Assembly (NCBI GenBank): GCA_964354805.1
Contig: CAYHBD010000009.1
Span: 91,538 to 155,537 of the forward strand
Source of the DNA: an uncultured archaeon
GTDB lineage: Archaea > Iainarchaeota > Iainarchaeia > Iainarchaeales > GCA-2688035
DNA: 64,000 nt
Reading direction: 5' to 3'
Position 1 is the first letter of the stretch. Each line of letters starts with the position of its first letter. The notes below the pieces were generated by a model. That model saw nothing but the letters and a program-made list of their open reading frames with translations. It was not told the DNA's origin and did no database searches. This document shows positions 4,646-57,634 of the stretch, one piece after another. A program made the position numbers and the translations under genes.

Positions 4646-5068
4646 ATGCACATTGATATCGAAAAGAAAAAAGAAAACAAGGCATTGAACAGAACAGAGA
4701 TTGCATTCAAAATAAGCGAGTGCAAGGTAACACCAAAGCGCTTGGATGTCAGGGCAAAAATCGCTGCTTTAATGAGTGCAAAAGAACAGCTTGCGATTGT
4801 TGACAGCCTGCACCAGCAATTCGGCTCGGACATTGTAACAGGAACTGCAAAGGTTTACAATGACGAGGCAACACTGCGAAAGCTTGAGCCAAGCTATTTG
4901 ATTGCAAGAAACGAGGGAAGAAAGGAAAAGAAGGAAAAAGCTGCGGGAAAACCGGAAGAAAAGAAAGAGAAAACAGAGAAAAAGCCCGAGGAAAAATCTG
5001 CCGAGGCAAAAGAGAAAGCAGAAAAGCCAGGGGAGAAACCAGCAGCGAAAGAGGCTGCAAAAGCGTAA
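4646..5068 (+). CDS. rps24e: 30S ribosomal protein S24e with a K/E-rich C-terminal extension
   Basis: NKALNRTEIAFKI...TPKRLDVRAKIAALM...IVDSLHQQFGSDIVTGTAKVY matches the S24e family. Confidence 0.85.
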   Translation: MHIDIEKKKENKALNRTEIAFKISECKVTPKRLDVRAKIAALMSAKEQLAIVDSLHQQFGSDIVTGTAKVYNDEATLRKLEPSYLIARNEGRKEKKEKAAGKPEEKKEKTEKKPEEKSAEAKEKAEKPGEKPAAKEAAKA

Positions 5069-14748: not shown

Positions 14749-14809
14749 AGCAAAAAACCCCTCGGCTCTTTCAAAACCCCATTAAGGCAATACATTGAAA
14801 ACCGCCCCT

Positions 14810-15364
14810 TCACTTCTTTCTGTACCATGCAGTGTACCTGTACAGCCAGTAGAACAAGGCAAGGACAACAATTGCAACAATTGCATTCAGAACAGTTGTA
14901 ACAGGCGGGTAGATATTCCTCTGTTCCCAAGGAATCAATTCAAAGTCAGGCTCAAAAAAAGCATAGGCGGCAATAACCACTGCAGCAACAAACATCAGCT
15001 GAATGAAAAAAAGCGCTGTTGCCTGCTGGTCCTTTGCCTTGCGCAGCTTTTCCTTTGCAGCCTGCTTTATTGTTGCACCAGCCATCTTTTGGGCAGCAAA
15101 CAAAGCAGGGTGCTTTTTCTTGACAGCAAAATACATTGCAACAATCAGAACAAGAATAAAAGCAAGCAAAACATACTCAATAGGCTCCCTGCTCAAGCTG
15201 AACTGAAAAGGGTGTTCAGAAAAAACCCGCAAGCCAAACAAATAAAGCAGCTGGTAAACAAAAAGAATCACCAAAACAATCTGGGCAAACAAAAAAGCAA
15301 TTGCCCTCCGCTGCTCCCTAATCGTCTTCCGCCTGATTCTAATCATGCTATAAAAGAACAGCAT
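14810..15364 (-). CDS. Hypothetical membrane protein (3-4 TM)
   Basis: Hydrophobic helices alternate with basic loops. The overlapping plus-strand ORF 14795..15430 is low complexity and was rejected. Confidence 0.4.
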   Translation of the reverse strand: MLFFYSMIRIRRKTIREQRRAIAFLFAQIVLVILFVYQLLYLFGLRVFSEHPFQFSLSREPIEYVLLAFILVLIVAMYFAVKKKHPALFAAQKMAGATIKQAAKEKLRKAKDQQATALFFIQLMFVAAVVIAAYAFFEPDFELIPWEQRNIYPPVTTVLNAIVAIVVLALFYWLYRYTAWYRKK

Positions 15365-16759: not shown

Positions 16760-16767
16760 GGGGCTTA

Positions 16768-16873
16768 TTCCTCAATTTTTATCCCGAACTCTTCATCAAT
16801 CTCTTTTGCGGTTTTCTTCACTCGTCAATTTTTATCCCGAATTCCTCATCTATTTCCTTTGCGGTTTTCTTCA
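16768..16873 (-). repeat. Tandem duplicate (2 x 53 nt) of the 3' end of the regulator gene. The extragenic copy encodes KKTAKEIDEEFGIKIEE-stop versus the genic KKTAKEIDEEFGIKIDE-stop.
   Basis: All 8 nucleotide differences fall at third codon positions in the copy's own frame, and the stop is retained (TGA to TAA). Confidence 0.8.
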
Positions 16874-17258
16874 TCCGCTGGAAAATCCTCTCAATGTCTT
16901 CCTCAATCTCCTCAATTGTTCGAAACATTGACCTGCTTCTCGGCAGATAAAAGCGCCCCTCTCGAACAACAAGACCAGAGCGCAGCATATTGTTCAAATG
17001 GTTTATTACGCTTCCCCTGCTCATCTCAACCCTCTTTGCAAGAGCAGTGGAAGTCAGGGGCTTGCTTCGCTCAGCTCCCTTAATGATTTCCTTGAAAACA
17101 CTAGCTGCTGTCTTCTCCCTGTCAATAGGTTCAAAAAAGCCGAGGCAGTTGCACAGCCAGTCAAGCTCTTTGTCAATGCCGTGGCTGAAAGGCTTTTCCA
17201 CCCTTCTCACAACAATCTTGAAAGAAGCCCTCCTGACGGTTTTTGGTTCCGGGCTCAT
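16818..17258 (-). CDS. Winged-helix transcriptional regulator divergent from grpE-dnaK-dnaJ (possible heat-shock operon regulator); the probable start is MSPEPK
   Basis: LTSTALAKRVEMSRGSVINHLNNMLRSGLVVREGRFY wHTH. An AT-rich divergent intergenic region separates it from grpE. Its 3' end is tandemly duplicated at 16768..16820. Confidence 0.5.
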   Translation of the reverse strand: MSPEPKTVRRASFKIVVRRVEKPFSHGIDKELDWLCNCLGFFEPIDREKTAASVFKEIIKGAERSKPLTSTALAKRVEMSRGSVINHLNNMLRSGLVVREGRFYLPRSRSMFRTIEEIEEDIERIFQRMKKTAKEIDEEFGIKIDE

Positions 17259-17349
17259 AAAATAATAAGAAAAGGAAAGCAATTTAAACATTTTGTTTAA
17301 GAAAATATGTAAATGATTAAATAATTTAGACATTTGGCAGTGATTTTGC

Positions 17350-17982
17350 TTGCAGAAAAAAGAAACCGGCACAACAGAGAAAAAGCAGAAACATGCTGAG
17401 AGTACAACTGAAAAAAAACAGGAGCAGACGGGAGAAGAGAAAAAGCAGTTGCACCAGCAAATTCAGGAACTTAAAGAGACATTGCAGCGCGTGCAAGCTG
17501 ACTTTGAGAACACATGCAAAAGGACGGAGAAAGAAAAGGCTGAATTCAGGAAGTATGCGAATGCTGCTATGGCAAAGGAATTGCTGCCTTTGCTTGACAG
17601 CATGGATGCTGCTGTTGAAAAGCTGCAGAAGCAGGAAGATGTGAAAAAGGAGGAGATGTTGAATGGATTGCGATTGTTGCGGATGCAATTGCTGCAGTTG
17701 CTGCAAATGCACGGGCTGCAGGAAATAAAATGCCTGGGCGAGAAATTTAATCCAATGCTGCATGAAGTAGTAACGCAGGGATGTGATGAAAGCAGGCAGG
17801 AGGATTGTGTGCTTGATGAACTGCAGAAGGGTTATTTGCTGAATGAAAGGGTTTTAAGGCATTCAAAGGTTAAAGTAAATAAGAAAAAAGAAGAGAAAAA
17901 AGGGAATGATGCTGAATCAACGGGTAAAAAAGAAGGGCAAAAGAATGGCGAAAAAAAGGGAATTGCTTCAAATAATGCATGA
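17350..17982 (+). CDS. grpE: Nucleotide exchange factor GrpE with a K/E-rich N-terminal extension; TTG start is uncertain
   Basis: LQRVQADFENTCKRTEKEK...LLPLLDSMD..., followed by dnaK and dnaJ. Confidence 0.85.
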   Translation: MQKKETGTTEKKQKHAESTTEKKQEQTGEEKKQLHQQIQELKETLQRVQADFENTCKRTEKEKAEFRKYANAAMAKELLPLLDSMDAAVEKLQKQEDVKKEEMLNGLRLLRMQLLQLLQMHGLQEIKCLGEKFNPMLHEVVTQGCDESRQEDCVLDELQKGYLLNERVLRHSKVKVNKKKEEKKGNDAESTGKKEGQKNGEKKGIASNNA

Positions 17983-25913: not shown

Positions 25914-26327
25914 TTAAAGCATTTTTTCAATTTCTTTTGTTGTTAGAACCTTTATTTCGTTTTGCTGCCTGAAGTGCTTGTCATCTGACCAGATTGGCTT
26001 GTTTCCAAGCTCTATTGAAAGGGCTATGAACGGAACATCGTCGGCATCAATTCCCTTCATTATCCCAAGCGCTTTGTTGATTGATTTTTTTGATATTTCA
26101 TTTTCTGACAAGACAGCTATTTTTGACAGGAGATGTTTCATTAAAAAGTTGAATTGCTGCTCGTTTATTCCAGCCTTCTTTTTTATCAGCGCTTTGTATT
26201 TTCCCACTTCTTTTAGCCCAAATTCCACGGTGTATAAAGAAAATTTTTTGCTCAGAATTATTCTCCTGCTTACGCTGTCTCTTATGAGCGCGGCGATAAT
26301 TCTGTTCGTGTCCACAATCAGCTCCAT
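25914..26327 (-). CDS. vapC: PIN-domain toxin (VapC-like)
   Basis: MELIVDTN... N-terminal acidic triad context, DADDV and SDD motifs. Overlaps the upstream small antitoxin gene by 10 nt. Confidence 0.65.
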   Translation of the reverse strand: MELIVDTNRIIAALIRDSVSRRIILSKKFSLYTVEFGLKEVGKYKALIKKKAGINEQQFNFLMKHLLSKIAVLSENEISKKSINKALGIMKGIDADDVPFIALSIELGNKPIWSDDKHFRQQNEIKVLTTKEIEKML

Positions 26328-26557
26328 GAGCCAAACCTTTTCTCAAAACGCCGCCTGATTTCTGCCTTGATACCGTGCCCTATTTCCTCGGCATCAGCCT
26401 CTGAAAGAGCGCTGTCCTTCAGGATTTTGTCCATAAACTCCAGCTCCCTGACCCTTTCCTCAAATGTTTCCCTCGCAATGCTGCTCCACCTGATTTCATT
26501 ATGCTTTGACATTCTTTTATGCAATTCATCCGGAATAGCCAGAGTCATATTAGCCAC
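26318..26557 (-). CDS. vapB: Small antitoxin-like protein paired with the PIN toxin (VapB-like)
   Basis: 79 aa charged protein immediately upstream of, and overlapping, vapC. Classic TA arrangement. Confidence 0.5.
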   Translation of the reverse strand: MANMTLAIPDELHKRMSKHNEIRWSSIARETFEERVRELEFMDKILKDSALSEADAEEIGHGIKAEIRRRFEKRFGSWS

Positions 26558-26783: not shown

Positions 26784-29174
26784 TTGCATATGGACCTTGA
26801 TTTCCACAAAATAGAGCAAAAATGGCAGGCGCACTGGGAAAAGAATAAGATATACAAATTCAACCCAAAAAGCAAGCAGCCTGTTTACAGCATAGACTCA
26901 CCGCCGCCGACTGTTTCTGGGACAATGCACCTGGGGCACGCATTTGCATTCACCCAGCAGGACTTCATTGCACGCTACAAAAAAATGCGCGGTTTCAACG
27001 TTTTCCACCCGTTCGGCTTTGATAACAACGGCCTGGCAACAGCGCTGATGGTTGAAAAAAAGCTTGGAATAAAACAGAAGAATTTCCAGAGAGACGAATT
27101 CATCAAAATCGTTCTGAAGGAAACAGCGGAAGAAGAGCGCAAGATGCTTGCAGCATTCAAAAGCATTGGATTAAGCGTTGACTGGAGCCTTTTATACAGG
27201 ACAATTGATGAGCTTGCAAGGAAAACAGCGCAATACAGCTTCCTTGATTTGTTCAAGCAGGGCAGGCTTTACCAGAAAGACGCTCCAACAATGTGGTGCC
27301 CGAGCTGCGAGACAGCGGTAGCACAGGCAGAGCTTGAGGACAGGGAAATTGAAAGCACCTTCAACGACATTGTTTTCAAAACAGAGCAGGGAAAAGAGGT
27401 AATAATTGCAACAACAAGGCCGGAATTGCTGCCTGCGTGTGTTGCTGTTTTCGTTCACCCAAGCGATGAAAGATTCAATCACTTGGTTGGAAAAAAATTA
27501 AAGGTGCCGTTGTTTGATTTGCTTGTTCCAGTGCTTGAGGACCAGAGAGCAGACCCTGAAAAAGGGACAGGAATTGTAATGTGCTGCACTTTCGGAGACC
27601 AGACAGACATGGAATGGTATCAGGCGCACAACCTGCCAATGAGGGTTGCAATAACAAAAGACGGCAGAATGAACGAACTCGCGGGAAAATTCAAAGGCAT
27701 GACTCTTGTTGAAGCAAGGAAAGCGGTTATTGAGGATTTGCGCAAAGAAGGTCTGCTTAAAGCACAAAAGCCGATAAAGCACGCTGTGAATGTTCATGAG
27801 AGATGCAAAACAGAAATGGAGATTCTGCCAAGCAAACAGTGGTTTATACACTACCTTGACTTGAAAGACGAGTACATAGTGAAAGCCGATGCATTGCAAT
27901 GGGTTCCAAAATTCATGAAATCAAGGTATGACAACTGGATCAAGGGATTGCAGTGGGACTGGTGCATTTCAAGGCAGCGCTATTATGGTGTGCCGTTCCC
28001 GGTATGGTACTGCAAGAAATGCGGAGAGGTAATGCTGGCTGAAGAAAAGCAATTGCCTGTTGATCCCCTAAAAGACAATCCCTTAAAGAAATGCAAGTGC
28101 GGAAGCGGCGAATTTGTTGGGGAGAAAGACACTCTTGACACATGGTTCATTTCATCGCTCACTCCGCAGATCAACTGCAAATGGGCCGAGGATTCCGCTT
28201 TCTTCAAAAAAATGTTCCCAATGGATTTGAGGCCGCAGGGACATGACATTATTGCATTGTGGGCGTTCAACACAATTGTCAAAGCATTGTTCCACCAGCA
28301 GCAGCTGCCCTGGAAAACAATTACAATAAACGGCTGGGCGCTTGATTCCAAAGGAAAAAAGATGTCAAAGAGCCTGGGCAATGTAATAAAGCCAGAGGAA
28401 ATGATCCAGAAATACTGCGCTGACGCACTGCGCTACTGGGCAGGCCTGCCTGTATTGGGAGAGGACGTTCCATTCATGGAAAAGGAAATGGTTGCGGGAA
28501 AAAAGTTTTTGGTGAAACTGCACAATGCCGCAATGTTTGTTGCAAACTCAACAAAAGGCGTGAAAATCGGGAAAATCAATAAAAAGGAATTAATGCCTGA
28601 GGACAAAGCGATTTTGAGCAAGCTGAACAGGCTGATAAAAGAATGCACTGATGCCTGTGAAAGGTTTGAGTTCAGCAAGGCACTGAATCCAGCAAGGAAT
28701 TTCTTCTGGCTGCAGTTCGCTGACTTTTACATTGAGGAAGTTAAAACAAGGGTTTACAACAAAAAAGACAAAAGCGGGAAAATAGCTGCAGCCATATTGC
28801 AGGAAGCAATTTGGGATTGCCTGCTTTTGCTTGCGCCATTTTTGCCGCACACAACGGAGGAAATAGCGCAGACAATGTTCAAGCACAAGCTGAAAGAGGA
28901 AAGCATTCATTTGCTACAATGGCCCTCGGCAGATGAAAAAATGATTGATGAAAAAGCAGAGCAAACAGGCGAACTGATTAATGAGGTCATTGCAGCAATG
29001 AGGAAAGAGAAAAGCAAAGCGCAAAAGCCGATGAATGCGGAAGTGCAAAAAGCAATTGTTTCATTGGCTGAACCGGAAAAGCTAAAGGAAGGGCTTGACA
29101 CTATTAAAAGGACAATGAACCTAAAGGAAATTGAATTAAAGAAAGGCGAGTTGGCAGTTGAATTGGAATTCTGA
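26784..29174 (+). CDS. valS: Valyl-tRNA synthetase (class I, archaeal type)
   Basis: SPPPTVSGTMHLGHA (PPP + HxGH), WDWCISRQRYYGVP, KMSKSLGNVI. The 796-aa length fits a compact ValRS better than IleRS or LeuRS. Confidence 0.7.
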   Translation: MHMDLDFHKIEQKWQAHWEKNKIYKFNPKSKQPVYSIDSPPPTVSGTMHLGHAFAFTQQDFIARYKKMRGFNVFHPFGFDNNGLATALMVEKKLGIKQKNFQRDEFIKIVLKETAEEERKMLAAFKSIGLSVDWSLLYRTIDELARKTAQYSFLDLFKQGRLYQKDAPTMWCPSCETAVAQAELEDREIESTFNDIVFKTEQGKEVIIATTRPELLPACVAVFVHPSDERFNHLVGKKLKVPLFDLLVPVLEDQRADPEKGTGIVMCCTFGDQTDMEWYQAHNLPMRVAITKDGRMNELAGKFKGMTLVEARKAVIEDLRKEGLLKAQKPIKHAVNVHERCKTEMEILPSKQWFIHYLDLKDEYIVKADALQWVPKFMKSRYDNWIKGLQWDWCISRQRYYGVPFPVWYCKKCGEVMLAEEKQLPVDPLKDNPLKKCKCGSGEFVGEKDTLDTWFISSLTPQINCKWAEDSAFFKKMFPMDLRPQGHDIIALWAFNTIVKALFHQQQLPWKTITINGWALDSKGKKMSKSLGNVIKPEEMIQKYCADALRYWAGLPVLGEDVPFMEKEMVAGKKFLVKLHNAAMFVANSTKGVKIGKINKKELMPEDKAILSKLNRLIKECTDACERFEFSKALNPARNFFWLQFADFYIEEVKTRVYNKKDKSGKIAAAILQEAIWDCLLLLAPFLPHTTEEIAQTMFKHKLKEESIHLLQWPSADEKMIDEKAEQTGELINEVIAAMRKEKSKAQKPMNAEVQKAIVSLAEPEKLKEGLDTIKRTMNLKEIELKKGELAVELEF

Positions 29175-29224
29175 AAAAAATTGAAGAAAGAAAAGGCGAG
29201 CTTGCGGTTGAAATGCAATTCTGA
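29130..29224 (+). repeat. Duplicate of the valS 3' end (14 codons plus stop) 50 nt downstream, frame-shifted relative to the gene
   Basis: IELKKGELAVELEF-stop versus IEERKGELAVEMQF-stop. Both end in ttctga. Confidence 0.7.
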
Positions 29225-29317
29225 GGGATAGTGGCAAAAAAATCAAAAATACCACTTATTTAAAGGTTTCTACTTTTATCGAAACATTTATATATAAATT
29301 GTGCAGCATATTGTATT

Positions 29318-29908
29318 ATGCGGAAGGCAGAGTTTGTTTTCAGGGAATTGCTTTTTCAGGTGCTTGAAAAAAGGGCGTATTCCTTTACCCAAAAGGATTT
29401 AAGCAGCAGGCTGAATATCAGCCTGAGCAATGTAAACCATGCCTTGCTCAGGCTGAGGGCAATGAACGCAGTCAAAGTAAAGCCAATGGGCTGCTCTGTT
29501 GTGAATGCAAAGAAGATCCTGTTCCACTGGGCTTGCAGCAGGAACCTGCAAAAGGACATTGTGTACAGCACAAGGGCTGAAATGCCTGTCAGGGAGATTG
29601 AGAAAAACATGCCTGCTGATGCAATTTTCACTGCTTACAGCGGATTCAAATTCAAATTCAATGATGCGCCTGCTGACTACAGCGAGGTGTATGTTTACGC
29701 TGCTGACTTGGATGAAATGCGCAAAAGGTTTCCGCATTCGGCGAAGCAGCCAAACCTTTTCGTATTGCAGTGCGATGCAATAATGCAAAGGCATGGAAAC
29801 ATTGCCCCAACAGGACAGTTATTCGCTGACTTGTGGAATTTGCCTGAATGGTATGCGCGAGACTTCCTTAAAGCGCTGGAGGCGAAAATCGATGCCCTAC
29901 TGGAATGA
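29318..29908 (+). CDS. wHTH-containing protein, candidate AbiEi-like antitoxin/regulator of the downstream nucleotidyltransferase
   Basis: N-terminal HTH (FTQKDLSSRLNISLSNVNHALLRLRAMN). Overlaps the downstream NTase gene by 17 nt. Confidence 0.35.
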   Translation: MRKAEFVFRELLFQVLEKRAYSFTQKDLSSRLNISLSNVNHALLRLRAMNAVKVKPMGCSVVNAKKILFHWACSRNLQKDIVYSTRAEMPVREIEKNMPADAIFTAYSGFKFKFNDAPADYSEVYVYAADLDEMRKRFPHSAKQPNLFVLQCDAIMQRHGNIAPTGQLFADLWNLPEWYARDFLKALEAKIDALLE

Positions 29909-30512
29909 ACTGGTAACTGAAAAAAGCTGGCGAAAACTGGCGGAACTGCGCCAGCAAAAAATACGGTTTGTTTTAATCGGAGGCTGGGCGGCATGGCTTT
30001 ACACAAAATCGCTAAAAAGCAAAGACATTGACATAATTGTGGGCTTTTCTGAATTAAGCAAGCTGCGCCAATTGTTTGATTTGACCAAAAATGATAGGCT
30101 GAAAAAATACCAGTTCGTTTTGGACGAAATTGACGTTGACGTTTATGTTGAACACTTTTCACTACTGGCAATTCCAGTGGAAGAGGCCATGAAAGAAATA
30201 ACACAAATAGAGGGCTTTACAGTAGTAAAGCCAGAAATGCTGTTGATTCTGAAGCAGGGCGCGGAAGAAGCAAGGCAAAAAAGCGAAAAGGGCCTGAAGG
30301 ACAGAATCGACATAATTGAACTGCTGCTGAAAGCAGGCATAAACTTTTCAGAATACAACAAAACACTGCAAAGGCACGGCATTGAACACTTCAGGCAGAG
30401 GCTGATTGAAATACTGCAAAACTTCAGTGAAACAAAATACCTGAACCTCAACCCAAGGGAATTCAAAAAAAAGAAGCAACAACTGCTGCGTGAAATAAAA
30501 GAAACCAAATAA
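29892..30512 (+). CDS. Minimal nucleotidyltransferase-fold protein (AbiEii/DUF1814-like candidate toxin); the track ORF starts earlier at 29793
   Basis: LIGGWAAWLYTKSLKSKDIDIIV matches the hGG-x(n)-DhDh polymerase-beta NTase signature. Paired with the upstream wHTH gene. Confidence 0.45.
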   Translation: MPYWNELVTEKSWRKLAELRQQKIRFVLIGGWAAWLYTKSLKSKDIDIIVGFSELSKLRQLFDLTKNDRLKKYQFVLDEIDVDVYVEHFSLLAIPVEEAMKEITQIEGFTVVKPEMLLILKQGAEEARQKSEKGLKDRIDIIELLLKAGINFSEYNKTLQRHGIEHFRQRLIEILQNFSETKYLNLNPREFKKKKQQLLREIKETK

Positions 30513-30596
30513 TTGCAGGACAGCTGGGTCAAATTTTTTAACGGCAGTAAAGCCCAAACAGAAAAAAACAAATTCAGGCTCAAATTTAAAACAATT

Positions 30597-30637
30597 AAAT
30601 TTTTATTAAAGAAAGCGCTTTATTTAACTGGATAAAA
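30597..30637 (+). promoter_or_regulatory. Conserved ~40-nt upstream element (TATA-like TTTTTATT plus conserved spacer) shared by all five WKRGEI-tail family genes; copy A
   Basis: aaatttttattaaagaaagcgctttatttaactggataaaa followed directly by ATG. The other copies are at 42159..42199, 44379..44419, 45965..46003 and 48109..48147. Confidence 0.55.
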
Positions 30638-32368
30638 ATGAGACGCAATCCCGCATTTTTTGTAATTGCTTTTCTTGCAGCATTTTTGCTAGTGAGCAAT
30701 GGCTGCTATGCCCAAGCCTTTGAGCATTCGCTCCATTTTTTTCAAATCAGGTATGGTGACAGTATGGGGGAGCCTCTTCCAGCCGGCAAAGTTGAGTTCA
30801 CAATCGGGCCTAATGCATATGACGGCTTGCTGCAGTATGCGTATGTATCGTTTATGACAATTACCCCCCAGGAAAATGTTAGTAGGGGAGATGCTCCGGG
30901 TTATGTTGTTTCACTTGACCCGAGTGAAATAGACACTGTATACAGCCAAAAAGGATACTGGCGGGGCAACGTATATCGGGTAGATAAAAATGAGCTGCAA
31001 ATAGCGGATATTCAAAAAATACACAAAGAATTAAATCCAAGCGATCCGGCATTATATTTTGGCGCTGAGTTGGATGCCAGCGAGAAACCAGCCAAGCCCG
31101 CTGGCTTAACAGATGCGGATTATCAGAATGGCAAAACAATTGTTGTTCCAGCAAGATATAATAATGATGTACCGTTCCAGAGAAGGTTTTTTTTTAATTT
31201 AAATGCCGAGGCAGTGAGAGAATACATGATCCTGTACGCGTTAAAGCAAGCTGGGTCAAAAAACATTTTTGTTGATGGTGCTTTTGTTAGTAACTGCCAG
31301 ATTTGTGTTAATTGCGGTTTTTATTCAGGTGGGGAATGTCCTAAAGGAGAATTAGGAGAATCAAAAGAATTGCATTATATTTCCAACGAGAGCGCTTCTA
31401 GTCAAATAATTACTTACACCTCGCAAATAAATGGCATCCTCAACAAAATAAAGGGCAGCCGACAGATTATACTTAATGGCTTTAGTTTAAGCCAATCCCA
31501 CCCATCTACCGCAGAAGTGCTTCGTTGGCTGTTGGATCATGGTTCCACTAATTTTGATGGAATAATGCTGGAAAACGGATTTTGGGGAGATGATCAGTTT
31601 TATGCCACTGATTTTTCTGCCAACGGGGGGCATGGCAATAACTGCATTGAGCCCTGGAAGTATCAAGGATTGGGCTACAGGGATCATATATGCACTGATA
31701 TCGAATATTATAGGAAGTATATATTGGAGTTAAAGAACACGAACAAGAAATTTTTGTTTGTAGCTGGAAGTGATGTTGAAGGCCACCCAGATTATTTAAA
31801 ATTTGCTATAGGCAACCCTTTGATTGAAGATATATGGCTGTGGTTTCACCTTATTGCAAGCCAAAACACCTATTTCTATATCACGCAGACTACCCAAGAG
31901 CCAATGCTAAATTACCCAGTCTACGATTCTCCTTTGGGGGTGCCCTTAGAAGAAGAGGGGCCCAGCAAAGATGGCAATACCTGGTCCAGAGAATACGAAA
32001 GAGGCACAGTTGTTTTTGACACAACAAAAGGCTGCATAAGTGAAATCAAATTCATTGAAAAAGAAATATGCGACGGCAAAGACAACGACGGCGATACCCT
32101 TATCGATGAAGACAATGTCTGCTGCAACAACGGGCAATGCGATGCTGGCGAAACAGTTACAACATGCCCGCAAGACTGCAAGTGTGGCAATACCCTATGC
32201 GATGCAGGCGAAACATTTGAAACCTGCCCAGAGGATTGCCAAGAATGCGTTGATAACGAAAAACTAGTAGGCGACTACATCCCCAAATGGAAAAGGGGAG
32301 AAATAACCATGCTTGTGCTGATGCAGAAAATCGCGGCACGAAACGCAGGAACAGGATGCCCGCAATAA
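30638..32368 (+). CDS. Secreted protein, family member A of the 'WKRGEI-tail' family. Signal peptide with Cys near the cleavage site, a putative carbohydrate-active/TIM-like core, two Cys mini-modules, and the conserved C-terminal tail.
   Basis: Signal MRRNPAFFVIAFLAAFLLVSNGC. C-terminus CKCGNTLCDAGETFETCPEDCQECVDNEKLVGDYIPKWKRGEITMLVLMQKIAARNAGTGCPQ. Conserved upstream element at 30597..30637. Confidence 0.7.
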   Translation: MRRNPAFFVIAFLAAFLLVSNGCYAQAFEHSLHFFQIRYGDSMGEPLPAGKVEFTIGPNAYDGLLQYAYVSFMTITPQENVSRGDAPGYVVSLDPSEIDTVYSQKGYWRGNVYRVDKNELQIADIQKIHKELNPSDPALYFGAELDASEKPAKPAGLTDADYQNGKTIVVPARYNNDVPFQRRFFFNLNAEAVREYMILYALKQAGSKNIFVDGAFVSNCQICVNCGFYSGGECPKGELGESKELHYISNESASSQIITYTSQINGILNKIKGSRQIILNGFSLSQSHPSTAEVLRWLLDHGSTNFDGIMLENGFWGDDQFYATDFSANGGHGNNCIEPWKYQGLGYRDHICTDIEYYRKYILELKNTNKKFLFVAGSDVEGHPDYLKFAIGNPLIEDIWLWFHLIASQNTYFYITQTTQEPMLNYPVYDSPLGVPLEEEGPSKDGNTWSREYERGTVVFDTTKGCISEIKFIEKEICDGKDNDGDTLIDEDNVCCNNGQCDAGETVTTCPQDCKCGNTLCDAGETFETCPEDCQECVDNEKLVGDYIPKWKRGEITMLVLMQKIAARNAGTGCPQ

Positions 32369-32527
32369 AAAAAGTGGCGAAAGAAGAGTTAAACAATATT
32401 ATTAAAGACTTTTTAAACGCAATTAATTGAAAGGGGCAAAAGAAAAGGGGCAATTGCAATGCAACTCATCAGGCAGAAGCCTTTTTTGCTGATGCAAAAA
32501 AGCCTTGGGAAAGAAAGGTGCCAATAA

Positions 32528-33130: not shown

Positions 33131-33332
33131 GCAGCAAAAAGGCTTTGCCGAAGGCAGTTTTCCCAAGGCTTTTTCCAGGGGGAAAAAGGCTTTTTAAATG
33201 TTTTGAAAGCAAAGGTATTTACAATTTTTAGTTTTTTCTTTCCCGTTTCAGTAAGAGCGGGAAGGTAGCTGCTGAAAAGCGGTGATTCTTGGCAAAAAAT
33301 GAAAATGGCTGGCAAGGTAAACCCAATCGTTT

Positions 33333-38029: not shown

Positions 38030-39640
38030 CTATTTCTTCTCAAGTATTGCTTTTGCGACTTCTCCGAAGGCTGGCCTTGTGATAAACACTCCGACCAGGA
38101 CTCCGATTGTGGTTGTGATTGCAAACCCGACCAGCCTGCCCAGACCGAAGCCGAGCAAAATCAGTGGCATCATTGTTGCAACGCTGACTGATGCAGCAGC
38201 CACCACAATAAAGAAAGCCCTCTTTGCCCTAGCCAAGAGGCTGCCGCTTTCTGCATCTATTTCGCCTTTTCGCAGCTCGTCCGTTATAATAATCTGGTCG
38301 TCAACGCCTGTTCCAACAGCCGCAACCAGGCCTGCAATGCTGCCCAAGTCAAATTTGCTTATTAAGGAAGTGAAAGCAGCAGCCATTACTACCTCGCTAA
38401 CGCTCCAGAAAATCATGGGCAGAGTCAGCTTCAGTAACCTGTATCTTATGAACAAAATAATGGCAACAACAATTATTGCAAGCAGCCCCATCAAAAACGC
38501 ATTCTGCAGGAAGTTCTCTCCAAGCAGCGGGCTGATTGTTTCCTTGCTAATGCTTTTAACTCTCTGGCTCAGGCTGCCTGATTGCAGGATTATCTCCAAA
38601 TCGCTTCTCCTCTGCTGCGCTGTTTCAGCTGTAGCGCCGCTGCCGAAAATCTGCAGTTTGTCCATTGCCTTTGCGTCCTCAAGCCTTGCGACATCCATCT
38701 GGGCAACGCTCTCGCTCAGGCTGATAATGCTACGCATGCCCAGTGCATCGAAAATAAACGGCTTTTGCTCCGGCACTGGAAACGGCTTTAGCTCAAAGCC
38801 CATTGCTGCGAGCTGCTGCTGCAGTTCATTGCCAAAATCGGATGGAATTATTGCATTCTTTTTCTGCGCAACAAGCGCCTGCAATTGCTGCAATTGCTCT
38901 TGGCTGAAATTGTTTCCGTCAACGATAAAATAGGGCAGTGCCCCGTTCGCCAAAACCTCTTTCATTTTTGTGCCCTCGGGAATGCCTTCAGCCTGCAGCC
39001 CCTGCAATAAAATCTGCTCGTCGTTGTAGTAAATTTTTTTAGGCAGAATCAAAACAGCGTTTTTCGGCCTGTCTATGAAGAAATAGGTTTTATCGCACTC
39101 GTATTCCCTTCCTGCAGTTGGGTCAAAGGAAACAAGCTGGCACCTGTGGAATGTCATTTCCTTAAAGCGGTTTGCTGCATTTATCCTTAAAATAAAGGGC
39201 AGTACCCACCTGAAGCCGTCGCCCTCCTTGTATAGGCCATAGCCCATTGTAGGGTCTTTCTCTATGCTGATTTCTTCGCCTGTAAAGAGAACGTTGCCGT
39301 CGATTGTTGCCTCGAAAACGCCCTGCTTTTTCAGCAGGCTCTCAATCCTTTCAATCGCGGCAGGATCTGTTTCGGCAATCTGGGCAATGACAAAGCTGTC
39401 GCCAAAAAAGTTCACGCTTGTGTCCCTCAAGCCTGTCCAGTCAAGCCTCTGCTGGACTGTTGTTATCATTCTTGCCCTTTCAACAGGGTCTGTTATCGGC
39501 TCCTCCAACTGAACCTGGAAAAGGGTGCCTCCGCTGAAATCGATTCCAAACTGCATGCCTCTTAATCCAAGAATCAAAAGAGCAATGCACAGAAAGAAAA
39601 TCATCAAGAGTATTCTCCAGTTTTTCAACAAAGAAGCCAT
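38030..39640 (-). CDS. secD: Protein-export membrane protein SecD (archaeal); the likely ATG start is at 39640, the track extends to 39676
   Basis: N-terminal TM, a large periplasmic domain, and a C-terminal six-TM bundle (GTGVDDQIIITDE motif). Downstream of secF on the same strand. Confidence 0.8.
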   Translation of the reverse strand: MASLLKNWRILLMIFFLCIALLILGLRGMQFGIDFSGGTLFQVQLEEPITDPVERARMITTVQQRLDWTGLRDTSVNFFGDSFVIAQIAETDPAAIERIESLLKKQGVFEATIDGNVLFTGEEISIEKDPTMGYGLYKEGDGFRWVLPFILRINAANRFKEMTFHRCQLVSFDPTAGREYECDKTYFFIDRPKNAVLILPKKIYYNDEQILLQGLQAEGIPEGTKMKEVLANGALPYFIVDGNNFSQEQLQQLQALVAQKKNAIIPSDFGNELQQQLAAMGFELKPFPVPEQKPFIFDALGMRSIISLSESVAQMDVARLEDAKAMDKLQIFGSGATAETAQQRRSDLEIILQSGSLSQRVKSISKETISPLLGENFLQNAFLMGLLAIIVVAIILFIRYRLLKLTLPMIFWSVSEVVMAAAFTSLISKFDLGSIAGLVAAVGTGVDDQIIITDELRKGEIDAESGSLLARAKRAFFIVVAAASVSVATMMPLILLGFGLGRLVGFAITTTIGVLVGVFITRPAFGEVAKAILEKK

Positions 39641-39843
39641 ATTGTCACCAAAAACAATTTTTAGTTTTCTCTCCAAATTCCAAAAAATCTCCTAAAAAAA
39701 TTTTAGTTTTCTTTCCAATTTCCCAAAAATCACCCAAAAAAAATTTTGATTCCACCTAATTTCCCAAAAATGCCAACCTCAAATTACCCCAAAAAAAAAT
39801 TTTAATTTCCACCCACTTCCAAAAAACCTTTTTCCCAAATCAC
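39641..39843 (-). repeat. Four degenerate tandem ~40-55 bp units between the secF stop and the secD start, each ending in a T7-T9 run (oligo-T terminator-like)
   Basis: Minus-strand units begin GGTGATTT(T)TGGGAAA... or GGGGTAATTTGAGG..., and each ends in AAAATTTTTTT(TT). Confidence 0.6.
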
Positions 39844-40923
39844 CTAAAATATTGTCTTTTTCTTTGCCCTCTCAACATACCACAGCAGCAGCGGGGCGTT
39901 CATCAGCCATGTTCCAATTATGTCTCCAACAAGGCCAAACAGCAGCACTGCTGAGATTTCAAAAATTATGCTGATCTGGTTGAAGTAAGAGACTACCAAC
40001 ATCACCAGAAGCGCGCCTATTGTTGTGCCAGTCATTGTAAGGCCGGTGTTGAGGCTGCCGTAAGCCCTTTCAACAGGGCTTTTCTCCTTCCTCTGCAGCA
40101 TTCTCGAGGTGAGCATTACATCAGTGTCAATGCTGTAACCCAACAGCATCAGCAGTGTTGGAATGCTGCTCAGGGACAAAGGTATTGAGAATACAGCCAT
40201 CATTGCAACAGCGCACCCCACATCAAAGATTCCGCACACTATGACTGCAAAGCTGGGAATGATTTTCCTGAAGAAAATGAAAATCACTATGGTTACGAGA
40301 ATAACCGCGAATATTGCAACATTAAGCCCTGTCTGCCAGAAAGAAGCGCTCAGGGTAGGCGATATCTCCCTTCTCTGGAAAGCACTGCTTTCGGATAATG
40401 AAAAGCGCTGCTTGATCAAATCCTGCATTTGCTGGCTGGCATTCTTGCCTGCCTCAATCAAGGCTAATTCAGCCTTGTTTACCGCCTCTTCAGGCTCACT
40501 TGGCAGGGTTGTGTCAGTGAGGTAACGCTTTACGCTTTCCACTGCATCCCTCGCAAGCTGCAGCGCGGCATCAGGATTATCAGGGTTTGTTTCAAGCGCT
40601 GCCCTGGCTGCCTCTACAGATGCTTTTCCTGATTCCAGGGCAGTGTCTGCCGCAAACTGGATGTTCACGCCGTATCCAGCAGGGCCTGAAACACTGCTTA
40701 CTTTTAATTCTGTTAGTTCAAAGTTTTGTGAGAGCAGACTGCTCAGTTCTGTTGCATCAATGGGCTTGTCTGCCCTGATTATCACCATGGTTCCGCCCTT
40801 GAAGTCAATTCCCATAGGCACTTTGGGCCATACGAAAATGAGGATAAAGAAGACTATGTATAGGGCAATCGGAATTGCGAGCAGCATTTTGTAGTTTTTA
40901 CCGTAGAAGTTTGGCAGCTGCAA
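39844..40923 (-). CDS. secF: Protein-export membrane protein SecF (archaeal)
   Basis: GIDFKGGTMV motif, periplasmic domain, C-terminal TM bundle. Ends with TAG. Confidence 0.8.
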   Translation of the reverse strand: MQLPNFYGKNYKMLLAIPIALYIVFFILIFVWPKVPMGIDFKGGTMVIIRADKPIDATELSSLLSQNFELTELKVSSVSGPAGYGVNIQFAADTALESGKASVEAARAALETNPDNPDAALQLARDAVESVKRYLTDTTLPSEPEEAVNKAELALIEAGKNASQQMQDLIKQRFSLSESSAFQRREISPTLSASFWQTGLNVAIFAVILVTIVIFIFFRKIIPSFAVIVCGIFDVGCAVAMMAVFSIPLSLSSIPTLLMLLGYSIDTDVMLTSRMLQRKEKSPVERAYGSLNTGLTMTGTTIGALLVMLVVSYFNQISIIFEISAVLLFGLVGDIIGTWLMNAPLLLWYVERAKKKTIF

Positions 40924-44419: not shown

Positions 44420-45871
44420 ATGAAAAAAACAATCAGGGCAATTGCCATCTTTGCATTACTTTTGCTTGCAAGCACAAATGGCAGCAGCGCAAAAAATAAT
44501 ATTTACGGTAGCGGCATAGATACAAATGGCTTGATGCCAATCAATGTTGATGACACCAATGTTAGCTATCGTTTCAGGGCAGAGCATTCAGGGTTGCTTG
44601 AAAGCGTTGCATTTTACCTTGTAATCAACAAGCCGTTGTACACTCAGGGCGATGGCGGGCATTTGCTGGTTGAATTACGAACTGATGATGGCACTGGAAA
44701 TCATTTTCCGTCCAACGAAGTTTTAGCATCACACTATATTGATAAACCAATGGATGGGCGCAGTTATCCCGGTTCTTTTGTTCCTTTACCAGGCAACCCT
44801 TCACCCTGCACTGGCAGCTCGTGCGGCGCTGCTTTCCCAAAAATTCCTTTAAATGCACAAATTGAAGAAGGAAAGCTTTACCACATTGTTTTTTCCAATA
44901 CGCACGCAGACAGCAGGAATAATTGGATGTCCCTGAATCTGCTTTGGGCTGACAGCACACCAATGCAGCCCATGTTTGATGACCTTGATTTTGCACTCCT
45001 TTTTTACGACAACTTCCACAAAACATGGACAACCAATAGCGAAACTCTTAGGACCCCAATATTAAGCGTAGATTACGTTGGTGGCAATTCGCAAGGGCAA
45101 GGCTACATAGAAGCGTGGACAAATGGCTCTGTTGCTATTGCAGGCGATAACAAAGTAAGGGAAAGATTTACTGTAAGCGGCAAGGACAGGCAGATATCAA
45201 AGGCATTTGTCAAGGTGCAAAAACCAGCTGGAACAAATCCAGGGGATTTAACATTCAAACTACAAAAAGATGACGGCACCATTATTGAAGAAGGCAATGT
45301 TGCCTCAGCCAGCATTAGTGAAGGAAGAATGCAATGGGCAAGCTATAGCTTCCGAGAGAAACACACATTAAAAGCAGGGGAAACATATGCCCTTGTTCTT
45401 GAAGCCCCACCCGGTGACTCATATAGTACTTTTGCAATTAGGGAAGGGGGAGATGTTGGATTGAACGGGGGTTTATTCAAAGACGGCAATGCATACTATA
45501 GTGATGACGGTGGACAGAGCTGGAAGGTGATTAGATACAGCGGATTTGATTTACAATTCTATTTTGAATTATCCTGCCCAAACGGAAACTGTGAGGAAGG
45601 GGAAAATTGTTTAACTTGCCCGCAGGATTGCCCCATATGCCAGCCCCAATGCGGCAACGGCACAGCGGACACTGGGGAAAACTGCTCAAGCTGCCCTGCA
45701 GACGTGCAGTGCGAAACAGGACAAGAGTGCATAGAAGGAACATGCACAGCAACGGAATGCATTAGGGAACCAGAGCTGCTCGGCTACATCAGCCAGTGGA
45801 AAAGGGGCGAAATAAGCATGCTCACGCTAATGCAAAAAATGAAACTATGGAGCACCGGAACAGGATGCTAA
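44420..45871 (+). CDS. Secreted protein, family member C of the 'WKRGEI-tail' family
   Basis: Signal peptide, a Cys-rich region CPNGNCEEGENCLTCPQDC..., and C-terminus ECIREPELLGYISQWKRGEISMLTLMQKMKLWSTGTGC. Conserved upstream element at 44379..44419. Confidence 0.7.
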   Translation: MKKTIRAIAIFALLLLASTNGSSAKNNIYGSGIDTNGLMPINVDDTNVSYRFRAEHSGLLESVAFYLVINKPLYTQGDGGHLLVELRTDDGTGNHFPSNEVLASHYIDKPMDGRSYPGSFVPLPGNPSPCTGSSCGAAFPKIPLNAQIEEGKLYHIVFSNTHADSRNNWMSLNLLWADSTPMQPMFDDLDFALLFYDNFHKTWTTNSETLRTPILSVDYVGGNSQGQGYIEAWTNGSVAIAGDNKVRERFTVSGKDRQISKAFVKVQKPAGTNPGDLTFKLQKDDGTIIEEGNVASASISEGRMQWASYSFREKHTLKAGETYALVLEAPPGDSYSTFAIREGGDVGLNGGLFKDGNAYYSDDGGQSWKVIRYSGFDLQFYFELSCPNGNCEEGENCLTCPQDCPICQPQCGNGTADTGENCSSCPADVQCETGQECIEGTCTATECIREPELLGYISQWKRGEISMLTLMQKMKLWSTGTGC

Positions 45872-45964
45872 CGCCAGCATAGCGCAGGCAATGAAAAGCA
45901 GGTGAAGGCTGCCCAATATAAAAATGGCTGCAAGGGGAAAAAGAATTGCAAAAACTGGGGCATT

Positions 45965-46003: not shown

Positions 46004-48025
46004 TTGAAATCCTGCATTAAAATTCCTGCAATCGCATTCCTTGCAATGCTGTTGATCGGGGCAGCATCAGCCCAAAAAATGAGGCATAAAGAGAAAAAGT
46101 TAATACAAGCGAATTTAGTGCTAGCAATTGGTATAGTTTCTTTACTGATTTTTTTTAGTTTGGGAAGTATTAGAGAGCCAGTTAAAGAAGGTTTAACGAG
46201 CTTTGCCGTATCAAGTTTTGATGAAGTTGTTCCCAATTGTGGCAATAATCTTTGCGAGAGTGGAGAAATTGCTGAAAGTTGTCCTGATGATTGCGATATA
46301 TGTTCTGAAGAAAAATGTGATGTGTATGCCCCTATTCAGCATAAGAAATATTTTAAGGCTGAAAAGGAAGTTTATGGTTATGACCCGCCTTTCCAACCAG
46401 CTCGAGTAACCTTTGACGCTAATAATAGGCCATATATCAGAAAGAATGACTGTAACACTACAAATGACTTCGCGTTTCGATGTTTTACAAATCAGCTAAT
46501 TATTCAAACCCTTAACAGCAGTGGAGAGTGGGAGTATTGGGATTTATCTAATATAGTAAAAACATACAAAGACCAAATGTTTAGATCCAGCACTCAAACA
46601 GATGAAAGAGTAATTATTGATTCTGACGGAGATATGTATCTTGCAGTTGAATACAATCTTGAACCTTCTCTGCTACTTTTATATTCAAATGATGAGGGTA
46701 AAAACTGGCAGAGTTATCCTATCCAAGGGGTGTCTATGAAGTTTGAACCATGGCCAGGGCGAAATACTCCATCAATTTTAATCACAAATCGTGATAATAA
46801 GGAATTATATTTTATTATACCCCAAAAATTATCAAATGGCACCTTAGATCTCTCCCATAAAATAAAATTATCAGATAATGCCTGGGAACCACTAAATCCT
46901 GGAGGGTATATGAGTTATTCTTTTAGTTATGGTGATCTAACTTTTTTTGTTTGGGCAGAATCAATTAGTTCTACTCCTAATGAAAACGGAACTCCATCTT
47001 ACATTGCCGTGTATAATAGGACAAGCAGATTGTTAAGTCAACCATATCATATTGGAAATGGTGGAACTTATAATGGGGGGACAGGACTCACTGAGCCCCA
47101 TAATCAACCAACCTTATGTTTGGATTCCAAAGGGTATATTCATGTTATCCTAGGAGGCCATAATGAGCAATTTAAATATTACAAATCAAAATATCCTTTA
47201 AATATCACAAAGTGGGAAGCACCCGTCTATCTTGGGGATCCAAATATTGATAATGTACAGAATAAACTAACTTATCCTGCACTACTTTGCGGAAAGGATG
47301 ATACTTTACATCTTGCTATGCGTTCAATAATTCCTACTTATAGTTTCACTTTATCTTATACAAGAAAAAAAACAGGTCAGGGTTGGGAAAAAATTAAGCC
47401 GCTTGTTTTACCATTCAGAGCCTATTATGGACACTGGTATCATCAACTGAACATGGATAATAATGGCGTATTGTACTTAAATTATTGGTATCTTGCAAAT
47501 AATTTATTTGATGATGAGCTTGAGGCTTATCAACAAAAGTGGCCAGACGAAGACATTAATCTTAGCGGAGCATACAAACCAACAAACAACACATATTGGT
47601 GGAATCTCTATCCACTATACCACAGTCCAGCGATGCTTGTTTCCTACGATAACGGAGATTCTTGGAAGCTCGCTGTTACAAGTGATTTTATAAAAGGAAT
47701 GAACAAAGAAATCTGCGGAAACCAGCAATGCGAAGCAGGCGAAACCTTTGAAAGCTGCCCAACAGACTGCAAATGCGGCAATAGCGCCTGCGAAGTAGGC
47801 GAAACTTTCACAACATGCCCGGCAGACTGCAAATGCGGCAATGCAACATGCGACGCAGGCGAAACATTCGAAACCTGCCCACGAGACTGCCCTCAAGAAT
47901 GCGTTGACAACGAAAAACTGGTAGGCTACTATATCCCCCAGTGGAAAAGGGGGGAAATAACCATGCTGACACTAATGCAGAAAATGAGGCAATGGAAAGC
48001 TGGAACAGGATGCCAGCCAGCATAG
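45995..48025 (+). CDS. Secreted protein, family member D: an N-terminal Cys mini-module, a BNR/propeller-like core, three C-terminal Cys mini-modules and the conserved tail; apparent TTG start
   Basis: Signal MIKLKSCIKIPAIAFLAMLL. C-terminus CGNQQCEAGETFESCPTDCKCGNSACEVGETFTTCPADCKCGNATCDAGETFETCPRDCPQECVDNEKLVGYYIPQWKRGEITMLTLMQKMRQWKAGTGCQPA. Confidence 0.7.
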   Translation: MIKLKSCIKIPAIAFLAMLLIGAASAQKMRHKEKKLIQANLVLAIGIVSLLIFFSLGSIREPVKEGLTSFAVSSFDEVVPNCGNNLCESGEIAESCPDDCDICSEEKCDVYAPIQHKKYFKAEKEVYGYDPPFQPARVTFDANNRPYIRKNDCNTTNDFAFRCFTNQLIIQTLNSSGEWEYWDLSNIVKTYKDQMFRSSTQTDERVIIDSDGDMYLAVEYNLEPSLLLLYSNDEGKNWQSYPIQGVSMKFEPWPGRNTPSILITNRDNKELYFIIPQKLSNGTLDLSHKIKLSDNAWEPLNPGGYMSYSFSYGDLTFFVWAESISSTPNENGTPSYIAVYNRTSRLLSQPYHIGNGGTYNGGTGLTEPHNQPTLCLDSKGYIHVILGGHNEQFKYYKSKYPLNITKWEAPVYLGDPNIDNVQNKLTYPALLCGKDDTLHLAMRSIIPTYSFTLSYTRKKTGQGWEKIKPLVLPFRAYYGHWYHQLNMDNNGVLYLNYWYLANNLFDDELEAYQQKWPDEDINLSGAYKPTNNTYWWNLYPLYHSPAMLVSYDNGDSWKLAVTSDFIKGMNKEICGNQQCEAGETFESCPTDCKCGNSACEVGETFTTCPADCKCGNATCDAGETFETCPRDCPQECVDNEKLVGYYIPQWKRGEITMLTLMQKMRQWKAGTGCQPA

Positions 48026-48108
48026 CGCAGGCAATGAAAAGCAGGTGAAGGCTGCCCAATATAAAAATGGCTGTAAAGGAGAAAAAGAATTGCAAAAATG
48101 GGAGCAGT

Positions 48109-56250: not shown

Positions 56251-56362
56251 TTATTCTCCCATCAATTCCTTTTCCAAAACAGCCCTGAGTTTTTTTGTGC
56301 CGAAGGTTTTATTCTCCCATCAGCTCTTTTTCCAGCACAGCTCTTAATTTTTTCGCATCGAA
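56251..56362 (-). repeat. Duplicate of the orc1/cdc6 3' end (17 codons plus stop) immediately downstream of the gene
   Basis: Gene FDAKKLRAVLEKELMGE-stop versus copy FGTKKLRAVLEKELMGE-stop. 12 nt differences in 54 nt, 8 of them synonymous. Similarity ends exactly at the stop codons. Confidence 0.8.
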
Positions 56363-57634
56363 CCCGAGCTTTATGAGCGTGGTTGCTCCCCTTACTCCTT
56401 TTCCGCTTGCTGTTGTCAAAAGCAGCCCGTATGTGTCCAATTCATTGATGTATTCCCTGAACCATCTGCTGCTTACAACGCTTTCGTTCAGGGAGAGAGC
56501 AATGCGCTTGTATTCGTTGTAGATGTCACCGCTGCAGAAAACGCCTTCCTCGCTTTGGCCTGAACCTGTTATTCTCTGCATTCCTTTTCCCTGTGTTGTG
56601 AGCAGGGAAATCGCGTACAACACCAGCTGCTGCTGCTTTGGCAGGGTTGCAACCATGTTAAGGATGATTTCCTGTTCAACGCTTGTCTTTGCCTTTCTTA
56701 CCATGACATCAGTTACCTCGCTGAATTGCATTTTGTCCGCCTCTTCTCCGGCTCTAAGAAGCAGCATTATTGCTGTTCTTGCATCCCCTGTTTCCTGCGC
56801 TGCGATTGCGGATGCGAGGTTGATTGCGCTGCTGCTTACAGCGCCGGGCCTGAATGCCTTTGCAATCCTTTCCTGTAGGATTGCCTTGAGCTCTTCAGCG
56901 TTGTAAGGCGGGAAAACCATTTCTTTTTCCAAGAGTGCGCTTTTTGTTCTTGCATCAAGGCGCTCTTTGAAGAAAAGGTTGTTGCTTATTCCAAGGATGC
57001 TGATGCTACCGAATGGCAGCTCGTCGTTTGCCCTTGTAAGCGAGTAAACCAGTTCGTCCAAATCCTTGGCTTTGTCTATTTCATCCAGCACAATGATGAG
57101 GTTCTTTCCTTTTTCAGATGCCGCCTGCAGCAGTTTTTCGAACACAAAGGAAGCGCTGTATCCAATGAAGTCCTCTTTTGGATGGAATTTCTGCATTGCC
57201 TTGAGCAGAACCTTATATTTGCTGTTGTGGTTTCTGCAGTTAACGAAAGCGAAGTCAACTGGCGAATTGCTTTGCTCAATGAATTGCTGCAATTGCTGCA
57301 ATACGTGCTTTACAGTGACTGTTTTTCCTGTTCCGACTTTTCCGTAAATGAAAACATTGTCTGCTTTTTTCCCCTGCAGAGTTGCAGCAAGCGCTGTGCT
57401 GATTTGCTCGATCTGCTTTTGCCTGAATGGCAGGGCATCAGGGACATAGTGCGGGGAAATAATGTTTTTATCCAGAAAAACAGTGTGCTTTGTGATAAAC
57501 TGCTGGAAAATGTTCTGCTGCGGAAATGTTTCGTCCTGTAGTGAAACAATTTTTTTCTGCTGCAGCAATGTTTCGTTCTGCGCTGAAACAATTTTCTGCC
57601 CCAGTCCCACCAATGTCTGCTGTGCCACACCCAT
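56309..57634 (-). CDS. cdc6: Orc1/Cdc6 replication initiator (AAA+ and winged helix); the N-terminus contains an in-frame tandem 14-aa repeat and the true start is possibly internal
   Basis: FIYGKVGTGKTVTV Walker A, IVLDEID Walker B, a sensor region, and a C-terminal wHTH. An AT-rich candidate origin lies immediately upstream (57635..57980). Confidence 0.85.
   Translation of the reverse strand: MGVAQQTLVGLGQKIVSAQNETLLQQKKIVSLQDETFPQQNIFQQFITKHTVFLDKNIISPHYVPDALPFRQKQIEQISTALAATLQGKKADNVFIYGKVGTGKTVTVKHVLQQLQQFIEQSNSPVDFAFVNCRNHNSKYKVLLKAMQKFHPKEDFIGYSASFVFEKLLQAASEKGKNLIIVLDEIDKAKDLDELVYSLTRANDELPFGSISILGISNNLFFKERLDARTKSALLEKEMVFPPYNAEELKAILQERIAKAFRPGAVSSSAINLASAIAAQETGDARTAIMLLLRAGEEADKMQFSEVTDVMVRKAKTSVEQEIILNMVATLPKQQQLVLYAISLLTTQGKGMQRITGSGQSEEGVFCSGDIYNEYKRIALSLNESVVSSRWFREYINELDTYGLLLTTASGKGVRGATTLIKLGFDAKKLRAVLEKELMGE

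Follow-up and report, generated by a model that had tools for sequence, protein, structure and literature searches.

Downstream of valS, the valyl-tRNA synthetase (ValRS) gene in the 64-kb stretch of DNA analysed here (the window), the last codons of the gene are found a second time, stop codon included, and this locus raises the question of what the second tail is and how it came to lie there. We favour, with a probability of about 0.7, the reading that the second tail (copy B) is left over from a 50-nucleotide (nt) tandem duplication across the valS stop and is now decaying neutrally, as judged from sequence comparison. The window encodes Rpo7, ribosomal protein S3Ae, Cdc6/Orc1, SecDF and PolD, and its closest ValRS matches all belong to Iainarchaeota (Diapherotrites; DPANN).

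The valS tail and its downstream copy

The valS start was assigned to ATG 26790, where the list of open reading frames (ORFs) gave TTG 26784, and the stop is TGA 29172-29174. The encoded protein shares 93% amino acid identity with the ValRS of locus L093 and 78-82% with those of other Iainarchaeota. The last 15 codons of the working tail (copy A), including the stop (29130-29174), are att gaa tta aag aaa ggc gag ttg gca gtt gaa ttg gaa ttc tga, encoding IELKKGELAVELEF, and those of copy B (29180-29224) are att gaa gaa aga aaa ggc gag ctt gcg gtt gaa atg caa ttc tga, encoding IEERKGELAVEMQF. The two tails are separated by a 5-nt spacer (aaaaa), align without gaps with 36 of 45 positions identical (80%, 9 mismatches), and both end in TTCTGA. 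A repeat search widened the units to 29121-29170 and 29171-29220, which are 76% identical and arranged head-to-tail with a period of 50 and nothing unrelated between them. Because of this period, copy B lies in the -1 frame relative to valS, and that frame is shut by a TGA at 29159. The preliminary description had reported a second valS tail with its stop, 50 nt downstream and out of frame, and both its peptides and its coordinates were correct; that a 3-nt stop is retained is unremarkable at such divergence.

CT(A/G)A tetramers were found at 29121-29124 (CTAA), 29171-29174 (CTGA) and 29221-29224 (CTGA), a placement which corresponds to the R-X-R-X-R layout of a microhomology-flanked duplication; these repeats are weak, extending over 3-4 nt, and the first is one base off. 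Behind copy B follows a flank common to relatives, in which we read tttatatata at 29288-29297 as a candidate TATA-like element.

When the window was shuffled 10 times with its composition preserved, no shuffle yielded more than one local direct repeat of such strength (0-1). In a survey of gene tails, the last 42 nt were compared with the downstream DNA for 1806 tails, taken from the window and from the loci fetched by then. A match of at least 33/42 was reached by only 5 of these tails, that of valS among them, and the in-gene control of the survey reached a maximum of 29, save one match of 38/42.

The locus was compared with those of L161 (JGI) and L162 (Logan), which are independent assemblies, of L167, and of L093, a metagenome contig. 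L161 and L162 are about 86% identical to the window over valS and the segment after it, with the same gene order and the same flank behind a single tail. Their stop is followed directly by gggatagcggcaaaaaaa…tttatatataaattg, and the three-way alignment left exactly 50 extra nt in the window. Identity to L161 is about 90% both before and after the duplication and does not shift at the junction. The contig of L167 (90% nucleotide identity) begins 42 nt before the valS stop, and its intact tail abuts the same flank and is A-like, matching copy A at 37/42 positions and copy B at 31/42. Since L161, L162 and L167 carry the same flank with a single tail, the 50-nt tandem duplication across the stop is, on this comparison, specific to the source lineage and younger than the adjoining genes. 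L093 (87.5% nucleotide identity) also has a single tail, lacks the shared flank, and starts bud32 21 nt after the valS stop. No second valS tail was found in 29 more distant ValRS loci of other Iainarchaeota; in the closest of these, bud32 begins 10-20 nt past the valS stop.

The working tail of L093 is identical to copy A and to copy B at 40/45 positions each, and that of L161 at 38/45 and 35/45, respectively. Copy B thus does resemble the ValRS tail of a relative, on which the preliminary description had made its case depend, and over the 3' half it agrees with L093 at 23/24 positions. A donor tail for copy B was sought among all fetched valS loci, and none was closer to B than to A. For the comparison of ValRS C-termini that had been proposed earlier for recognizing the native copy, a tandem duplication allows no single answer: copy A is continuous with the gene and copy B with the downstream flank (tga followed by gggatag…) of L161, L162 and L167.

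The changes between the copies were polarised against the single tails of L093, L161 and L167. Those private to copy B are all non-synonymous, namely tta>gaa (L to E, 2 nt), aag>aga (K to R, 2 nt) and ctg>atg (L to M), joined by gaa>aaa (E to K) if the preceding 9 nt are counted. Those private to copy A (ttg, gca and ttg) are synonymous, and one site, gaa in A and caa in B, is ambiguous in polarity. Such an asymmetry is expected where purifying selection acts on the working tail and the copy beside it is unconstrained. A simulation in which both copies mutated equally fast, with a filter applied to the working copy alone, reproduced the valS pair (4 synonymous and 5 non-synonymous differing codons) with P=0.16. 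Since the private changes of copy B are non-synonymous and the neutral-relic simulation fits, the "conservative substitutions" from which the preliminary description read a preserved peptide are no sign of constraint; every one of these private changes alters the amino acid, and L to E and E to K are not conservative.

A head-to-tail duplication of 50 nt of the valS 3' end would thus have occurred after the split from the sampled relatives, probably by slippage or template switching between the CT(A/G)A short direct repeats at the unit borders. As the duplicated unit holds the stop, the gene would end normally in the first copy and the second would be left untranslated, so that the protein would remain unaltered, by which the duplication may have survived. 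Lying untranslated between valS and the promoter of the next gene, copy B would have been costless, would not have been removed, and would have drifted since. Out-of-frame duplications of 40-60 nt would survive only across gene ends or between genes, and such a survival filter would explain the border positions of duplications in a compact genome. Among the tandem duplications of 40-58 nt in the window, those within genes preserve the reading frame (cdc6, 42 nt, 57513-57595), and out-of-frame ones are found solely at gene borders, with periods of 50, 53, 58 and 54/56.

Microhomology-mediated tandem duplications (MTDs) have been described in fission and budding yeast, with sizes of 55, 68 and 92 bp, microhomology of 5-8 bp, and depletion from essential genes (PMC8639346). 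The valS relic is like them in being a head-to-tail copy of tens of bases (50 nt here) that may be bordered by short direct repeats and spares the reading frame. It differs in its microhomology of 3-4 nt against 5-8 bp in yeast and in its route of formation, which here is a proposed one; in addition, the valS copy is old, diverged (80%), archaeal and spans the stop, whereas the yeast MTD is a reversible subclonal variant. By most tests the valS relic would qualify as a microhomology-flanked tandem duplication, its two copies having probably been identical at the beginning. The features discussed are collected in Table 1.

Table 1. Features at the valS locus and second copies at other gene ends (window coordinates unless another locus is named)
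Feature	Position	Strand	Basis or remarks
valS (valyl-tRNA synthetase), working gene, 794 aa	26790..29174	+	Pfam tRNA-synt_1 1.3e-92, Anticodon_1 3.1e-36
Copy A, working C-terminal tail LKEIELKKGELAVELEF and stop; repeat unit 1 = 29121-29170	29121..29174	+	Sequence and repeat search
Junction CTGAAAAAA, copy A stop and A-run	29171..29179	+	Direct reading
Copy B, putative relic tail, -1 frame, without usable start codon, apparently decaying	29180..29224	+	Sequence, repeat search, relatives
Flank common to relatives, gggatagtggcaaaaaaa … tttatatataaattg, up to next gene start 29318	29225..29317	+	Alignment with relatives
Three genes between valS and bud32, in this clade alone: 196-aa winged-helix protein, 239-aa ORF, 576-aa Cys-repeat protein	29318..32368	+	Pfam, relatives
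bud32 start relic ATGCAACTCATCAGGCAG, MQLIRQ	32460..32477	+	68 nt upstream of bud32 ATG; 17/18 to L081 bud32 start
wHTH (winged helix-turn-helix) regulator tail relic (gene 16818..17372)	16765-16821	-	Period 53, last 18 codons, stop kept as TAA
cdc6/orc1 tail relic (gene 56309..57634)	56251-56308	-	Period 58
PolD DP2 tail relic	L168 about 4912-4960; L171 about 1570-1600		Period 49; two relatives

Alternative explanations of copy B

Several points weigh against a neutral relic formed by simple duplication. The microhomology at the unit borders is just 3-4 nt, one of its three copies being CTAA, and the relic is found on one contig, with no independent assembly carrying it. Copy B has about 5-8 private changes per 50 nt, where 10-12 would be expected under neutral drift since the L161 split; the duplication may be younger than that split. 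Neither copy is nearer to L093; ctt gcg … caa ttc tga is common to B and L093, and ttg gaa to A and L167, so that an origin of copy B in a sister lineage is conceivable from these tails. Finally, the sister relics described below are not neutral-like, and the process which generates them may be more than slippage.

A recombination scar is a rival reading which we consider unlikely. One of the copies would then come from the valS tail of another lineage, joined out of register at a microhomology between homeologous DNA at a conserved/variable edge, in the manner of homology-facilitated illegitimate recombination or of a single-stranded patch at the replication fork (SPDIR). The position of valS agrees with this, as the gene lies at a conserved/variable border where relatives carry 0, two, three or four genes before bud32. 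All four relics of the window (wHTH, valS, bud32 and cdc6) lie at such borders, where conserved genes meet genes without counterpart in 154 related loci; the window has eight more conserved/variable borders, and no relic was detected at these. The order at the locus is nested, running from tail A and tail B through the variable genes to the relic bud32 head and the working head. The junction CTGAAAAAA could pair with a post-stop A-run like that of L093, and in the sister pairs one member is similar to a tail that works elsewhere (cdc6 and L156, PolD and L168, and the switch in the middle of the wHTH relic). Against a scar, L161 and L162 hold the same neighbouring genes without the relic, and hence the relic did not arrive with those genes; for the same reason, the relic as an insertion scar of the valS-bud32 segment was rejected. 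The unchanged divergence from L161 across the junction and the failure of any sampled tail to come nearer to B than to A also speak against it, and the private changes of B, all non-synonymous, are unlike those of a foreign tail that was working until recently.

According to a preprint, SPDIR inserts own or foreign single-stranded DNA of 3 to about 100 bp at microhomologies, and it was shown experimentally in bacteria at very low frequency (bioRxiv 10.1101/2023.11.22.568220). Patches of this size would account for tandem copies of which one looks foreign, as in cdc6 and PolD in this clade. The valS copies differ in showing no foreign sign by tail identities or junction divergence, whereas the cdc6 relic does (42/45 to L156). 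We know of no archaeal case of SPDIR.

A function of copy B, either by translation (through a frameshift near the valS stop or as a small ORF of its own) or as a 3' untranslated region or regulatory element, is highly improbable. In favour of a function, the stop and the tail-like reading frame of B are intact, and there are hints of constraint among the sister relics. The window and L155 agree at 91% of positions in the cdc6 relic, against 77% at third codon positions; the wHTH relic starts at a GTG that overlaps the TGA of its gene, and in four assemblies its frame runs uninterrupted to a stop of its own; and in the window as in L161 an upstream ORF begins at the bud32 head relic. At copy B itself, no ATG, GTG or TTG follows the TGA at 29159 in its frame until an ATG three codons before its stop, no + strand ORF is listed for it, and no X XXY YYZ slippery heptamer was seen in 29160-29174, which is all that the -1 frame leaves for a shift; readthrough past the valS stop in the zero frame yields an unrelated peptide. 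Frameshift, readthrough and a small ORF were thus ruled out by the closed frame, the missing start and slippery site, and the absence of copy B from all sampled relatives. An RNA element or terminator was ruled out as well, as the copy B region gave no terminator-like site and no Rfam match and its RNA folding (z=-0.40) was no better than that of shuffled sequence. The private changes L to E, K to R and L to M alter the peptide, and the cdc6 relic of L171 has decayed (L to F, M to T and a 1-nt deletion), which argues against a general function of such relics.

An assembly artefact, in which the assembler would have joined the valS tails of two strains one after the other, deserves hardly any credence: the window is apparently from a metagenome-assembled contig and no second assembly has the valS relic, but the longest exact run common to the copies is 9 nt, no overlap of k-mer length was seen at the junction, B holds non-synonymous changes absent from every sampled tail, and the cdc6 and wHTH relics recur with identical junctions in independent NCBI, JGI, Logan and ENA assemblies.

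Two known systems were also compared and rejected. Integrated elements at tRNA and tmRNA genes and at some protein genes duplicate the 3' end of the gene, so that the copies flank the element, and an integrase is present. The valS locus is similar in that a gene 3' end occurs twice, once working and once displaced, beside variable DNA; it differs in that its copies are 5 nt apart and do not flank an element. Attachment-site repeats of an integrated island were rejected on the finding of no further copy in 29230-32527 on either strand and no integrase domain. Diversity-generating retroelements consist of template and variable repeats with adenine-restricted mismatches and a reverse transcriptase. 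The likeness here is a repeat in a C-terminal coding end with a near-copy just downstream, and the difference lies in the gene, as ValRS is a housekeeping enzyme and no ligand-binding target. In copy B, the bases at the 9 mismatches are g, a, g, a, c, t, g, a and c; A-sites make up 3/9 in B and 2/9 in A, and no reverse transcriptase domain was found among the ORFs scanned between 22202 and 33130. A template/variable repeat pair was rejected, as the mismatches are not adenine-specific and the scanned ORFs hold no reverse transcriptase.

The valS-bud32 segment and second copies at other gene ends

In the window, 3.35 kb separate valS from bud32, which starts with ATG 32528, whereas in most relatives bud32 lies directly after valS. 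The first two genes of the segment are common to L161/L162, L163 and L167, and the three genes predate the duplication. Pfam searches with 29318..29908, 29793..30512 and 30638..32368 gave only HTH_24, a weak DUF6036 and a weak GHL15 match, with neither an integrase nor a reverse transcriptase among the matches of these genes. Just upstream of valS, a PIN-domain toxin gene and its small partner ORF were observed at 25914-26557; in L009, the DNA between valS and bud32 contains two small genes (8131-8765), read as a candidate RelE/ParE-like toxin pair.

The bud32 head relic opens an upstream ORF of 22 codons that ends at the bud32 start (22-23 codons in the window and L161, where it reaches the bud32 ATG or overlaps it). 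Head relics are present in L161 (about 14766-14833) and L167 (about 1389-1450) as well, and those of the window and L161 have three synonymous differences. Divergence is seen in the N-termini of the working bud32 copies (MRLVRQ, MNLLRQ), whereas MQLIRQ, the common form, is kept in the relics. An exact 16-nt inverted repeat, AAAAAGCCTTGGGAAA and TTTCCCAAGGCTTTTT, brackets bud32 at 32497-32512 and 33159-33174; a 14-mer of it also occurs downstream of rpo7 (4198-4211), and its upstream copy is found in L161 and L009. The motif AGCYTTGGGAAAG, searched with 2 mismatches across the window, was not enriched (10 found, 7.9 expected). Upstream of rpo7, two decayed copies of its ribosome-binding and start region, both without ATG, were observed at 3381-3505 with periods of 54, 56 and 112.

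That the valS case belongs to a wider gene-tail phenomenon, as the preliminary description held, was borne out by the tail relics of the wHTH regulator gene and cdc6 (Table 1). The junction of the wHTH relic is identical in the independent assemblies L164 (8441-8500), L165 and L166 (JGI, Logan and ENA). Compared with the gene tail, 7 of the 8 differing codons of this relic are synonymous, for which neutral decay gives P=0.001. In the window and in L164, this relic has the same sequence over 36 nt, then differs at 7/21 nt with a plausible tail peptide retained (FGIKIEE versus FGIQVEE before the stop), and then passes into unrelated DNA.

The last 14 codons and stop of the cdc6 relic encode the same peptide as the gene through 8 synonymous differences, again with P=0.001 under neutral decay. 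The relic is also present in the NCBI assemblies L155 (3659-3715) and, decayed as described above, L171 (1516-1570), and it is absent from L168-170. It matches the working tail of the distant L156 at 42/45 positions, although the cdc6 genes are 70.8% identical overall and no 45-nt stretch of the alignment between L156 and the cdc6 gene reaches 42. At all seven differences between relic and tail, L156 agrees with the relic. Gene conversion between the cdc6 copies is visible in L155. The wHTH and cdc6 relics are not assembly artefacts, having the same junctions in independent assemblies.

The working PolD tail of L168 is odd in having 7 synonymous differences in its last 10 codons beside near-identical DNA, and the L168 PolD relic equals the working PolD tail of the window. 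A long imported tract behind the L168 tail was rejected, as the divergence is limited to the last 30 nt. In L171, where cdc6 and PolD are convergent neighbours with no gene separating them, the relics of both tails are nested back to back in the intervening DNA. The PolD DP2 of L155 (5582-10456) has 1624 aa and contains an intein (LAGLIDADG and intein-splicing domains), and PolD of the window (52429-55875) has 1148 aa without intein.

Outside the clade just one comparable tail relic was found, in L010 (6961-8200, Candidatus Iainarchaeum andersonii), with a period of 98, the peptide FGKLKGMFE kept, and the stop changed from TAA to TGA. Further repeats were observed in the window. Four direct repeats of about 42 nt each fill the spacer between secF (39844..40923) and secD (38030..39676) at 39645-39832. 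The large proteins of the variable regions have 60-nt Cys-rich repeats in common (32138-32257 and 47729-47908) and also a C-terminal motif, fragments of which occur again just past the stops (45842-45913 and 47987-48056).

Meaning of the valS relic

Taken alone, the valS relic is ordinary, a harmless scar of an already known kind of duplication, and annotators should call it neither a gene nor a recoding signal. Its frequency in context is another matter: tail relics number 3 in the 58 genes of the window against 2 in about 1750 tails from other DPANN loci, which suggests that this lineage makes or keeps gene-border duplications of 50-60 nt unusually often. In our view this could reflect a reduced DNA-repair toolkit.

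Second copies were found at five gene ends in the window and its close relatives, i.e. the wHTH, valS, cdc6 and PolD tails and the bud32 head, and the copies at these ends, which differ almost only synonymously, have outlasted about 10% of genome divergence. In the sister pairs, one member has the look either of a gene end working in another lineage or of a sequence that is retained in its own right. Candidate explanations for them are SPDIR patches, out-of-register homeologous recombination, gene conversion, and a nucleotide-level role of the old gene end; by tail identities and junction divergence, valS has none of these signatures. It is possible, though rather doubtful, that the valS relic represents the last, decayed stage of a process which recurs in this clade and adds differently coded second copies at gene ends facing variable DNA. 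The source of such a process could be foreign patches, out-of-register homeologous recombination, or a duplication that frees a nucleotide-level signal from its coding role. If the sister relics were indeed imported or selectively kept, they would provide a sequence-level record of DNA exchange at the conserved/variable borders of small archaeal genomes.

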